Source: Bacteroidota bacterium
GTDB lineage: Bacteria; Bacteroidota; Bacteroidia; Chitinophagales; Chitinophagaceae
Assembly: GCA_018268055.1 (NCBI GenBank)
Contig: JAFDXF010000019.1
Span: forward strand, 8,580-72,579
Direction: 5' to 3'
Length of the DNA stretch: 64,000 nt
The notes beneath the pieces were generated by a model. That model saw only the letters and a program-made list of their open reading frames with translations, was not told the origin of the DNA and made no database searches. This document shows positions 1 to 3,864 of this stretch, piece after piece; the first letter of the stretch is position 1; every line of letters begins with the position of its first letter. The position numbers and the translations under genes were made by a program.

Positions 1-115
1 TCCACCAAGGTAGAATACAAGAGATGACACCAACGGCAGCTAAGATTAAAGCAGAGAGTTTTTGTTTGTGTAAACCAGAGAATGGATTTTGTGTGTTTTG
101 TGAATTTTGTTCCAT
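1..115 (-). CDS. Hypothetical membrane protein, N-terminal part only (runs off window start): MEQNSQNTQNPFSGLHKQKLSALILAAVGVISCILPWW...
   Basis: Manual translation of the reverse strand from ATG at 115; open to the window edge; hydrophobic segment ending in LPW. Not in the ORF track. Confidence 0.75.
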   Translation of the reverse strand, partial: MEQNSQNTQNPFSGLHKQKLSALILAAVGVISCILPWW

Positions 116-134
116 AGCAAAATAGTTGATTTAG

Positions 135-195
135 GTTTTGCCTACTCGTATGGCTTTTCGGCATTCGCCCCTGTTTTGTGAGGGTCAGGTCTTCC
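135..195 (-). ncRNA. Structured leader RNA resembling Bacteroidota motifs of the Flavo-1 / DUF805 type (exact family not determined)
   Basis: Minus strand GACCUGACCCUCACAAAACAGGGGCGAAUGCCGAAAAGCCAUACGAGUAGGCAAAAC. Hairpins CCCU/AGGG and UGCC/GGCA. Ends ~20 nt before the ATG at 115. Family resemblance is from memory only. Confidence 0.5.
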
Positions 196-204
196 TTTGT
201 AAAA

Positions 205-238
205 CTAAATTAAGGCAGTTTGGCTGAATTACGCCAAA
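205..238 (-). promoter_or_regulatory. Putative sigma-A promoter for the leader and gene at 1-195
   Basis: TTTG (238-235), 22-nt spacer, TAATTTAG (212-205), a variant of the Bacteroidota -7 TAnnTTTG element. Confidence 0.4.
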
Positions 239-297
239 TAGTGTTGAGTTTTTTTTAAACGACTATTCCACAGAGATAGATAGGAGAGGAGTAAAAC

Positions 298-436
298 ACT
301 CGTAGCAGAAGCAGGAAATGTTTGTAAAAATCATTCGGACACCAAGAGTACTGGCTTTTTACCGATATTGGATTATCACAATTTTCCTGCCTTTGCGCTT
401 ACATAAAGAATTATGCCTGCGTGATTTGCTACGGGT
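298..436. ncRNA. Candidate structured ncRNA (three-way junction), unassigned family
   Basis: Nested inverted repeats: 301-307/427-433, 311-318/383-390, 322-332/371-381, 335-338/362-365, plus side hairpin 396-421. Confidence 0.45.
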
Positions 437-509
437 TTCTTAGTTATGATACTTAAAAGAACTACGTTGTTATATTGTCTTTTGCTGTCAGACAATTAAT
501 TTTCATGAC

Positions 510-917
510 TTAACGAATTTCAAACTGTCCGGTTGCAGTTTCTGTATCGCCATTAAAAACTCTATAGATATAAATACCTCTATTCAGGCTTGTTAACTTG
601 ATATGATCTTTTGATTTCATTTTGTAATTATTCACTAATGAGCCTTGTATGTCAAAAACAAAAAAATCAAGAACATCATTCCCGTCTTTGGCTACAACAT
701 GCATCTCTCGTTTGATAATATCAGGAAAGATTTTTACGGCAGCATTATTTAGTGTTCCGGTCTTGTTATTCTGTTTTGCCGGTTTTTTCTTTTCTTTTTT
801 TATCGGCTCTTCTTTGCCAATATTATCATTTGCAAAAGTGGGTTGTAGTAAAATGAAGCTACCGGCTATTAGCAATGCAGGTATGCTTAGTTTGTGGTTA
901 AAGTTTAATTGTTTCAT
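510..917 (-). CDS. Small T9SS type A sorting-domain protein (signal peptide, short Lys-rich linker, CTD only)
   Basis: Signal peptide ending ...QPTFA. CTD-like motifs VKIFP, FFVFDIQGSLV and LTSLNRGIYIYRV. No passenger domain. Confidence 0.7.
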   Translation of the reverse strand: MKQLNFNHKLSIPALLIAGSFILLQPTFANDNIGKEEPIKKEKKKPAKQNNKTGTLNNAAVKIFPDIIKREMHVVAKDGNDVLDFFVFDIQGSLVNNYKMKSKDHIKLTSLNRGIYIYRVFNGDTETATGQFEIR

Positions 918-941
918 GGGCTCGGTTGTTTTATGTTATGT

Positions 942-1898
942 TTAGTAATATGTGGGACATTTTAGTTGCTTCAAGCGAGGATCCTTTTTATTTAAACGCC
1001 ATCCAAAGCGTATGATACTGGTGAAATAAGCATCATTTTGTTTTGGATCACCACGCTCTGCAAATTCTTGATAGGGGCGAGTGGTAGGAAATGTATAAGT
1101 GCCACGATAATAGAGCCTTCTTGCCCTTACTGCATCGGCAGGTGATAAGTAATGATCAAAATAAATAGGGTCTATATAATAGTTATGACTTACATCATCC
1201 ACATAGTCTGTAAATAATTTACGATGTAATATTTCCAGGCCTACATACATATTTTCTTTTAAATAATATTTAAAACCAAAGCCCATTACTACATTCATTT
1301 GGGTCAACTTGTAAGGTTTGCTATCAGGATATTCAGCCATACCCTGTCCTTCTAATCTTAATGGAGCAAGCTCTACCCATTTCCCATCGATATCCTGCGC
1401 CTTTGGATTGAAGTGAAACATTCCGGCTCCTCCCACTAAATATGGTCTCATCTTTCCTTGTAAGCCTTCATATTTTTCAAAAAAAACAGTTGGATATAGC
1501 TCAATGGCAGCATACGCTTCATTGATATTTGATTTAAAACTAAGGTTTCGATATTTACGATCTTCTTCATCACCACCTTTTGCAGGTGCTTCTGAGTCTT
1601 TGCCTTCTACAAAGCCCATTGTAGCTGATACTCGAAAGCCAAGCCACTCGGTAGGATAGTAATTAAAATACGCAGACTTAGATAATTTTGTCAAGGGAAG
1701 ATTTAAGTCTTTAATAAATGTTTTTCCTACGCCAGCCGTGCCTCCGAGATCACCTAAAAAAAACATTGGACCTACGCCAGCACCCAATTCAAATTTTCCA
1801 TTAGGAGTACTGATGGATTGAGCATTTCCTGTTACACAAAGGATGTTCAGATAAGAAAATAATACGGACAGCCGTAAAAAATGGATACTTGTTCTCAT
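942..1898 (-). CDS. DUF6089-family outer-membrane beta-barrel protein (PorG-like paralog)
   Basis: Signal peptide; ELGAGVGPMFFLGDLGG, RNLSFKS, PLRLEGQG, TDYVDDVS and RGDPKQNDAY motifs typical of DUF6089. Confidence 0.75.
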   Translation of the reverse strand: MRTSIHFLRLSVLFSYLNILCVTGNAQSISTPNGKFELGAGVGPMFFLGDLGGTAGVGKTFIKDLNLPLTKLSKSAYFNYYPTEWLGFRVSATMGFVEGKDSEAPAKGGDEEDRKYRNLSFKSNINEAYAAIELYPTVFFEKYEGLQGKMRPYLVGGAGMFHFNPKAQDIDGKWVELAPLRLEGQGMAEYPDSKPYKLTQMNVVMGFGFKYYLKENMYVGLEILHRKLFTDYVDDVSHNYYIDPIYFDHYLSPADAVRARRLYYRGTYTFPTTRPYQEFAERGDPKQNDAYFTSIIRFGWRLNKKDPRLKQLKCPTYY

Positions 1899-2042
1899 TG
1901 GAATTGGATTTCAGTTTTTCGTTCTATTGGATTTGAATACAAAATAGAAACGGAATTTCCCTTATAAAGAATAAACGATTAAGTATTTTCTTTTTAACGA
2001 CTAAAAAAAGAAGAAGTGCTTAGTGATAATACGAGTGGAGTA

Positions 2043-2483
2043 TTAGGATTTTACCATTTCAATATGTTCAATGCCATCTTCTAAATAAATCTCACCTTGT
2101 GTTGTAAATCCTAGTTGTGTATAAAACTTGATAAGATAATATTGAGCACCAATACGTATAGATTGTTTACCTAATTTATTATATATGGACTCAATAGATT
2201 TCTGCATTAGGAGTTTTCCTATTCCTGCACGCCTTGTCTGAGGAGACGTTACTACTCTTCCTATACTTGCTTCTTTAAAGGCTATGCCGGGTGGTATTAT
2301 TCTGGAATATGCAATCAGCTTATTGTTACTAAAACACATTAAATGATAAGCTGCTTGATCTTTATTATCCATATCAGGATAAACACAGTTTTGTTCTATG
2401 GCAAATACTTCATTGCGTAATTGCAATATGGCGTATAGCTCGTCAACTGATAGTGCTTCAAATTTTTTTAATAACCAATTCAT
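2043..2483 (-). CDS. elaA: GNAT family N-acetyltransferase, ElaA-like
   Basis: LYAILQLRNEVFAIEQNC, IGRVVT, RRAGIGKLLM, IGAQYYL and YLEDGIEHIEM motifs. Confidence 0.85.
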   Translation of the reverse strand: MNWLLKKFEALSVDELYAILQLRNEVFAIEQNCVYPDMDNKDQAAYHLMCFSNNKLIAYSRIIPPGIAFKEASIGRVVTSPQTRRAGIGKLLMQKSIESIYNKLGKQSIRIGAQYYLIKFYTQLGFTTQGEIYLEDGIEHIEMVKS

Positions 2484-2511
2484 ATTAGAAATATAAAATT
2501 ATATTCGTTGA

Positions 2512-3864
2512 TTATCTACCGGCAGGCAATGATATTACTGCCAAACTTTCATTTCCATCCTCACCTACAGCTTGTACTCCGAAAAAGTAATTGTCTTTTG
2601 AAAAAGGTAAATCCATTTTAGTTTCAGTAGTAAATATTTTTTTCTGCCATATAGGAGAAGTGGTTTCACGGATTAGAACAAAGTATCCTTTTACATTTCC
2701 ATGTTTTGGCGATTTCCAAGACAGGTTTGAGAAGTTAGTTAATTTTCTTGTCTCCATTTTTACTTCCAATGGTTCGGATGGAGCTTTGGCAAGGTTTGCC
2801 AGATTGCAAAGATTTAAGCAAGTGTTTTTGCGTAGATATTCAAAATCCATATACTCCGGAAGGTCTCCGTATTGAATTCCATTTTCCAATCTTACATCCT
2901 GATGTTGATGTGTATAGTTCTCATTCATTTCTGTAATACGAACTGCTGTAAATCCTCGTTGCAGATAAGGGATATGGTCTCCTCCACGTAAAAAGCGGTC
3001 AGGGCGATACACCATTACCACTTCTAAATTGTCGACATACCTTTCGCCTATTTCTTTAATATACCTTGCCAATTGTCTTGACTTGCTGTCGTTTTCCAAA
3101 CCGAGGTTACGAATGTTTAATGCTGCTTTGCCTGTATCTAAAATAGAAAAAGCTTCACTGAATACACGTACTTGTGTGTTGTTTGTTATATTAGTTTCAT
3201 TACTATTATTACTGCCTATTATATCGTTATTGAACACTGCTTCAATATCCCAATGCTCTTTTTTTGCATTTGAAGCCATAAAATTTGCGCCTAACAATCC
3301 TTGTTCTTCTCCACTTACTGCAACGAAAATGATGGTAGCAGGAAAATTTCTTTTACTCATTATTCTGGCACATTCCAGTACATTAGCTACACCACTTGCA
3401 TCATCATTTGCACCTGGAGCATTGCCAACGCTATCCATCACATTGCTACGCATATTATCTAAATGGCCACTCACAATAAATATTCTTTTATCTTGAACGT
3501 CTGTGCCTTTCAAAGTGGCTACTACATTTCCAAGTATTATTTTTCTATCTACTCTTTTACCATCGGGTTGTAATGTTATTGTATCTATAATTGCTGATAA
3601 TCTTCCATCGGATGAAGCAGCAAATTGATTGAACTTACTCAATACCCAATTTCGGGCAGCACCAATACCTCTTATATTGCTTATTTGATTGCTTAATGTA
3701 TTACGTGTTCCAAAACTCACCATTTTATTAATATATGATTCTAAAGAATCTTTAGAAACTTCATTGGCCATTTTTTCTATGGCAGCATCACGTATTATTA
3801 TAGTTTGGCCAATTGACGATTTTGTGATAAAAGTAGCAGCTAAAACAAGTAATATATTTTTCAT
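2512..3864 (-). CDS. M28 family metallopeptidase, secreted, with small C-terminal FN3-like domain
   Basis: Signal peptide; GHLD, GANDDASG, SGEEQGLLG, NNDIIG and RGGDH zinc/catalytic motifs. Confidence 0.85.
   Translation of the reverse strand: MKNILLVLAATFITKSSIGQTIIIRDAAIEKMANEVSKDSLESYINKMVSFGTRNTLSNQISNIRGIGAARNWVLSKFNQFAASSDGRLSAIIDTITLQPDGKRVDRKIILGNVVATLKGTDVQDKRIFIVSGHLDNMRSNVMDSVGNAPGANDDASGVANVLECARIMSKRNFPATIIFVAVSGEEQGLLGANFMASNAKKEHWDIEAVFNNDIIGSNNSNETNITNNTQVRVFSEAFSILDTGKAALNIRNLGLENDSKSRQLARYIKEIGERYVDNLEVVMVYRPDRFLRGGDHIPYLQRGFTAVRITEMNENYTHQHQDVRLENGIQYGDLPEYMDFEYLRKNTCLNLCNLANLAKAPSEPLEVKMETRKLTNFSNLSWKSPKHGNVKGYFVLIRETTSPIWQKKIFTTETKMDLPFSKDNYFFGVQAVGEDGNESLAVISLPAGR

Follow-up and report, generated by a model that had tools for sequence, protein, structure and literature searches.

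A conserved, uncatalogued folded RNA behind a small T9SS sorting-domain gene in Chitinophagaceae

The DNA analysed here (hereafter, the window) is a 64,000-nucleotide stretch of a Chitinophagaceae genome, and the features described below lie near its beginning and are read on its minus strand. A DUF6089 barrel gene (942-1898, minus; Pfam, 30.4 bits) is followed by a gene for a 135-aa protein (510-917, minus) with a T9SS C-terminal sorting domain (Por_Secre_tail, 24.8 bits, just below the 27-bit cut-off). A spacer of 394 nt then separates this gene from the start of a small membrane-protein gene at position 115 (minus). Within the spacer, a preliminary description had flagged positions 298-436, here called E1, as a candidate structured RNA. 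Read in the direction of the genes, the spacer contains a small hairpin at 474-496 (minus; from the repeat listing and the fold), located between the stop codon and the tail, where relatives carry a second element (E2); a conserved 5' tail; E1 itself; and a pyrimidine-rich, G-poor tract at 259-297 (minus; GUUUUACUCCUCUCCUAUCUAUCUCU...), which by its composition is a possible Rho-loading or termination region. The DUF6089 barrel gene and the small T9SS gene were paired in all loci examined. The small protein of the pair has 120-170 aa, a signal peptide, a Lys-Glu-rich composition and the sorting domain, with no passenger domain. Additionally, a conserved box, AACCGAACC(N2-3), stands directly before the AUG of the small T9SS gene in about 60 relatives; the corresponding start-site box in the window (918-935, minus) is AACCGAGCCC-AUG, and looks like a leader signal common to these genes.

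The downstream part of the same spacer has features of its own. A DUF805b RNA motif (RF02914) was found at 139-171 (minus) with 31.3 bits, relative to a gathering score of 35.6, and in relatives the motif scores reach 35.1 bits (DUF805b) and 43.8 bits (DUF805). Upstream of it on the minus strand, at about 205-240, is a promoter-like site, TTTG-N22-TAATTTAG. The C-rich tract is separated from the promoter of the DUF805b-led gene by a stretch with the conserved motif YTGTTAYTAAC-N-GGTTTAAAAAAA, which in the window (about 250-275, minus) reads GGAAUAGUCGUUUAAAAAAAAC. This motif is clearer in relatives, is present only where the DUF805b-led gene is the left neighbour, and may be an UP-element or a regulator site.

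The preliminary description had claimed nested complementarity above the AT-rich background, and folding of positions 298-436 alone bears this out: the minus strand reached -44.5 kcal/mol (z -5.89) and the plus strand -44.0 kcal/mol (z -4.92), and none of the 200 dinucleotide shuffles folded as well on either strand. Every pairing that it had listed is present in the sequence and was recovered in the minimum-free-energy (MFE) folds of this stretch. P1, the closing helix, pairs a 5' arm CGUAGCA (427-433, minus; family core CCCGUA, from folds and covariation) with a 3' arm UGCUACG (301-307, minus). P3 is formed by 309-318/383-392, 322-327/376-381, 329-332/371-374 and 335-338/362-365, and ends in an apical hairpin at 341-355. 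The outermost of these segments, P3a, has the 5' arm AGGCAGGAAA (383-392, minus; folds and covariation). The inner rod (341-381, minus) consists of the 5' arms of P3b (376-381) and P4 (371-374), one arm of a 4-bp helix (362-365) and the apical hairpin, while 309-338 (minus) supplies the 3' arms of P3a and of the inner helices. P2, a side hairpin (396-421, minus; CGC-AG-GCAUAA-UUCU-UUAUGU-AA-GCG), pairs 396-398 with 419-421 and 401-406 with 411-416 in the folds, and has counterparts in homologues. The proposed three-way junction is thus real in this window, but it does not define the family: P2 arms are present in 30 of 82 distinct homologues, as a two-tier hairpin whose sequences differ yet stay complementary, and since P2 is optional the junction is no defining feature.

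The copy of E1 in the window is divergent and gives only a local match of 54 bits to the covariance model described below. The most conserved loop, an internal loop of the inner rod that is UAUCCGGnUGAAAAACC in the family, has a 2-nt deletion here (AUAUCGGUAAAAAGCC), and the CAC bulge on the 3' side of the family rod is CAU. Furthermore, a G-to-A change in the 3' arm of P1 results in an A-C mismatch on the minus strand, or a G-U pair on the plus strand. When the element was folded within 263 nt of minus-strand context, P1 of the window was absent from the MFE structure, because it contains two A-C mismatches on this strand. The divergence of E1 and the loss of E2 at this locus may reflect relaxed constraint, or a locus that is decaying in this lineage.

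E1 was modelled first by a profile hidden Markov model (HMM) and afterwards by a covariance model (R1). E1 is a single-copy element in its own 3.2-Mb genome, where only the query itself was matched, and a model search of the 64-kb window found no second E1 copy and no E2 remnant. The spacer is syntenic in approximately 20 genomes of the same genus. A BLAST search with the E1 copy of a relative matched 26 of 401 genomes of the family, belonging to 16 of 151 genera, once per genome, and in a further set of 80 Chitinophagaceae loci about 70 have E1 next to E2. A REP/MITE-type or other mobile repeat was rejected, as the element is single copy in the genome and syntenic in relatives, with one E1 locus in each. 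Searches of window positions 1-3000 and 270-510 (241 nt) against Rfam 15 with cmscan (E<=10) returned chance hits only, of 14-15 bits and to eukaryotic families; a relative carrying both E2 and E1 likewise had no Rfam 15 match beyond chance, and E2 in relatives matched no Rfam family. Within the literature collection that was searched, there was no paper on Chitinophagaceae structured RNAs or DUF805 motifs.

Plain MAFFT alignments with RNAalifold recovered only P3, or P1 and P3, because variable inserts become misaligned; a hand-set structure and a covariance model were therefore needed. In the model-based alignment of E1 (65 distinct sequences, 500 shuffles), which was fitted to the structure of the minus-strand model and hence leans towards that structure, standard pairs occupy 96.7% of cells, relative to 92.5 +/- 0.2% in shuffles and 29-48% when the partners are slid. 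Compensatory changes on both sides were observed in 16 of 26 pairs (5.2 +/- 1.5 in shuffles) and double changes in 60 cells (9.3 +/- 2.7 in shuffles), and none of the 500 shuffles equalled any of the observed values. At one P1 position, for instance, UA occurs 42 times, CG 11 times and UG 5 times. In a mixed alignment of E1 and E2, 24 of the 26 pairs have a compensatory change. P3a is the best-supported helix (97.7% paired, with compensatory changes in six of eight pairs), and its counts are robust because this segment is free of indels and lies between invariant flanks that anchor it. The comparison of syntenic regions that had been suggested as a check thus yielded homologues in many Chitinophagaceae genera, and these covary. 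Overall, the fold, the synteny, the covariation and the absence of an Rfam match all favour the novel sRNA or structured element that had been proposed, and the flagged stretch is a real, conserved, uncatalogued folded RNA of the soil-bacterial family Chitinophagaceae.

Most relatives have the second conserved element, E2, which is located between the T9SS stop codon and the E1 tail. It was detected in nearly every locus as a weaker second match of the E1 HMM and of R1 (35-65 bits), with examples at L022:1080-1237 and L013:1910-2065. The two elements have in common a closing helix (CCCGUAAG/CUUACGGG), a GGCAGGRA/UYCCUGCC helix, a CAC bulge and an AAAUC...GAUAYC..UGAAAAA(A)CC segment, and on this sequence evidence E2 is a paralogue of E1. 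Its inner part contains an invariant stretch (minus strand, ...UGAUCCGUUCUCUAUUGGUACUCUCAU...), of which a 22-nt piece was found in at least 120 species-level genomes, all of Chitinophagaceae or Chitinophagales, including Terrimonas and many MAGs; among the cultured carriers of this E2 core are Terrimonas ginsenosidimutans NA20 and Terrimonas sp. R1. In the window E2 is absent, and only 43 nt with the small hairpin are left in its place (467-509). The spacer from E2 to the E1 tail measures only 4-13 nt in 31 of 85 loci and elsewhere contains variable hairpins. In L013, L017, L018, L019, L029, L086 and L128, for example, these hairpins are long and built up from short tandem units, each of about 7 nt, together with complementary copies (e.g., GTGAATC GTGAATG ... 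TTCACGA TTGACGA), which are inserted in some genomes and absent in others.

The position of both elements relative to the T9SS gene is nearly constant. Of 85 non-redundant loci, 82 have an ORF with the sorting domain (at least 90 codons; motif ...GDEETAxGxFEIR) whose end lies near E2, and in 78 of those 82 the stop codon is no more than about 25 nt from the start of the E2 model match; the closing helix of E2 therefore starts approximately 25-30 nt downstream of this codon. The tail of E1 in the window begins about 43-44 nt after the stop of the T9SS gene (510). As is the case for 3'-UTR-embedded RNAs, the element is on the same strand as the gene, downstream of its stop, with no room for a promoter of its own. 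The right neighbour is constant, whereas the left (downstream) neighbour varies between the DUF805b-led membrane gene, a Yip1-like gene and a convergent uvrA that follows with no intervening gene, and E1 therefore belongs with the T9SS gene rather than with the downstream gene. A riboswitch or other cis-regulatory 5' leader was rejected, as there is no constant same-strand gene downstream.

Directly behind a stop codon, such rods could be a purely cis-acting 3'-end structure, which would only protect the DUF6089/T9SS message against 3' exonucleases or aid its termination, with no partner and no separate RNA. Several observations fit this explanation. No intrinsic terminator site was found in window positions 1-1000, and hairpins that resemble terminators and have a U tract are few, without strand bias, between E2 and E1 (9 and 8 of 85 loci on the two strands) and occur after E1 in only 9 and 4 of 85 loci. 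The closing helices are stable, and the tract that follows is G-poor and C-rich: in 85 loci, the 50 nt after E1 have 30% C and 12% G, relative to 22% and 20% across the whole loci, and a C-rich, G-poor composition is expected of a Rho loading (rut) site. However, a stabiliser needs structure and not a particular sequence, and yet Box A and Box B of the tail and the UAUCCG..UGAAAA loop of E1 are near-invariant across genera, an invariant 22-nt stretch of E2 occurs in at least 120 species, and the two neighbouring paralogues have both been retained although their conserved loops differ. A role limited to stabilisation or termination is thus considered unlikely, although it deserves some weight.

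The conserved unit reaches past the flagged stretch into the 5' tail (window 437-466), as seen by comparison of homologues. The tail contains Box B (UAGUUCUUUU; 455-464, minus; family consensus GAGYUCUUUU, model R1 positions 1-10) and Box A (AUAACUAAG; 439-447, minus), the latter 2-6 nt before P1. The Box B region is about 90% conserved in genomes of the same genus (query 315-348), and Box A is near-invariant in the 65 distinct homologues. Among homologues, the boxes are separated by 7-10 nt; a gap that varies in this way excludes an ORF and speaks against a -35/-10 pair. The tail is specific to E1 and is the best conserved DNA of the spacer, and one genus (L039/L041/L044) has E1 without it. 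A short plus-strand ORF in the tail (ATG ACA ATT AAA AGA GCT) was rejected, as some genera do not have its ATG, the spacer differs in length by 1-3 nt (not multiples of three) and the changes in helices are compensatory rather than codon-like. Base-pairing between the tail and the region around the start codon of the host T9SS gene was likewise rejected: the duplexes reach only -2 to -11 kcal/mol, and across 60 loci they share no consistent register.

The conservation of the tail could instead mean that E1 is an independent minus-strand sRNA gene, the tail being its promoter and transcription starting at the foot of P1. Consistent with this, the tail ends 2-6 nt before P1, is found with E1 only, and has been retained together with E1 in the window, where E2 is lost; moreover, the sequence UAACUAAG loosely resembles the -7 promoter box of Bacteroidota, TAnnTTTG. 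In contrast, there is no conserved TTTG-type -33 element at the expected distance, and a Sigma-A-type Bacteroidota promoter in the tail was rejected for this reason and for the variable box spacing. A two-box promoter would hardly allow the 3-4 nt by which that spacing varies, and the genus that has E1 without the tail is difficult to accommodate. A separate gene of this kind therefore appears improbable.

The direction in which the RNA is read was examined by means of wobble pairs, as an A-C combination on the minus strand corresponds to G-U if read on the plus strand. In P1, P3a and P3b of E1, minus-strand G-U occurs 64 times and A-C 7 times; in P1 and P3a of E2, the respective counts are 80 and 9. 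At one P3a pair, AU (23), GU (29) and GC (11) form a series that is wobble-compatible on the minus strand only. The wobble counts from these alignments thus place the RNA on the minus strand of the window, so that its orientation is that of the DUF6089 and T9SS genes. The opposite arrangement would be a plus-strand sRNA convergent with the T9SS gene, with the U-rich tail UUUCUUAGUUAU as part of its terminator. Individual homologues do often fold with slightly lower energy on the plus strand, P1 of the window pairs better there (G-U for A-C), and a terminator-like plus-strand hairpin follows the tail in three related loci. Nonetheless, G-U outnumbers A-C by about 9 to 1 in favour of the minus strand in both paralogues, the AU/GU/GC series fits only that strand, and the plus strand offers no promoter or gene logic, with terminator-like sites in 8 of 85 loci. 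The plus-strand arrangement is thus very improbable.

A 6S-type RNA that binds RNA polymerase would also be a rod with closed ends and a large asymmetric internal loop, encoded at one locus per genome, and the two paralogues recall 6S-1 and 6S-2 of Bacillus; moreover, no catalogued 6S model matches in Chitinophagaceae. Yet the models RF00013, 6S-Flavo and Bacteroidales-1 gave no match even at E<=10 on short stretches, the rod without P2 is about 105-115 nt long, relative to about 150-200 nt for 6S RNA, and the loop lies near the apex and not in the centre, so that there is very little to recommend a 6S assignment. Finally, a feature of the DNA itself (a palindrome bound by protein, a cruciform or what is left of a mobile repeat) would account for the long inverted repeats, but is scarcely credible for a single-copy locus that is syntenic over many genera, and whose compensatory changes and strand-asymmetric wobble pairs point to a single-stranded nucleic acid of one strand.

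The reading that we prefer, with a probability of roughly 0.55, is that E1 and its tail (437-466) form a structured RNA domain in a 3' UTR, probably released as a stable regulatory or protein-binding RNA. The message would be a two-gene unit, encoding the DUF6089 barrel and the small protein with the T9SS sorting domain, with E1 in its 3' UTR. The RNA is a rod closed by P1 that has the strongly conserved GGCAGGRA/UYCCUGCC helix, a bulge and an internal loop that are both conserved, and, optionally, the side hairpin. The transcripts of most relatives would contain two such domains, E2 directly after the stop and then E1, and that of the window only one. Transcription would end within the C-rich, G-poor tract, presumably by a Rho-type mechanism, and the RNA would be trimmed back to the rods, whose stability would block 3' exonucleases. 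E1 may then be kept on the message, or cleavage within its A/U-rich tail may set it free as a stable species about 110-140 nt long. The near-invariance of the unpaired parts, together with the presence of two paralogues with different conserved loops, argues for a partner to which the sequence matters; the invariant unpaired segments (Box A, Box B and the UAUCCGGnUGAAAAACC loop) might be recognised by a protein or by another RNA. What the sequences show is the structure, its covariation, the strand, the synteny and the absence from Rfam; we infer transcription, the 3' end, processing and any regulatory role.

A more far-reaching and doubtful possibility is that E1 and E2 represent a new class of RNAs that bind proteins or machinery and serve the cell envelope of Bacteroidota, which are not known to have Hfq. 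They could, for example, be a signal borne on the mRNA, whereby translation or placement of both encoded proteins (the DUF6089 barrel and the T9SS substrate that has no passenger) is coupled to the secretion machinery, or else a sponge or decoy pair for an RNA-binding regulator. The GGCAGGRA helix, the CAC bulge and the UGAAAAA loop would then be a common docking site. To our knowledge, regulation by RNA has hardly been explored in Bacteroidota other than the gut Bacteroides, and Hfq and ProQ are lacking in these bacteria. E1 and E2 offer a testable entry into the control of envelope and secretion genes in Chitinophagaceae, and into the role of the tiny T9SS substrate. The alignment and the covariance model would be sufficient to propose a new Rfam family.

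Among known systems, the DUF805b and DUF805 motifs (RF02914 and RF03081) resemble E1 in being orphan Bacteroidota RNA motifs that come from comparative genomics, and the DUF805b-type motif of the window lies in the same intergenic region, 130 nt away. They are nevertheless separate from E1: the motif has its own promoter-like site, is located in the 5' leader of the downstream gene and is a small hairpin of about 35-68 nt, and E1 is not linked to the DUF805b-led gene, because its left neighbour varies. The 6S families (RF00013, 6S-Flavo RF01685 and Bacteroidales-1 RF01693) are similar to E1 in their rod shape, paired ends, internal loop, single locus per genome and paralogues, but E1 matches none of their models, is about 40% shorter, has a loop that is not central and lies inside a 3' UTR.

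Envelope-linked sRNAs derived from 3' UTRs are known from enterobacteria, and include CpxQ from cpxP, MicL within cutC, SroC and DapZ. As in these, a conserved RNA module is placed at the 3' end of an envelope-related message, and by analogy E1 could be released as a stable RNA with conserved unpaired segments. There is, however, no homology in sequence or structure. The enterobacterial sRNAs use the intrinsic terminator of the parent gene and depend on Hfq, whereas E1 has no intrinsic terminator and occurs in Bacteroidota, from which Hfq is not known; and E1 and E2, unlike the enterobacterial 3'-UTR sRNAs, are two tandem paralogous rods. What is new is the family itself, and the tandem placement of its members behind a T9SS gene; the kind of element, a 3'-UTR RNA module or sRNA, is known.
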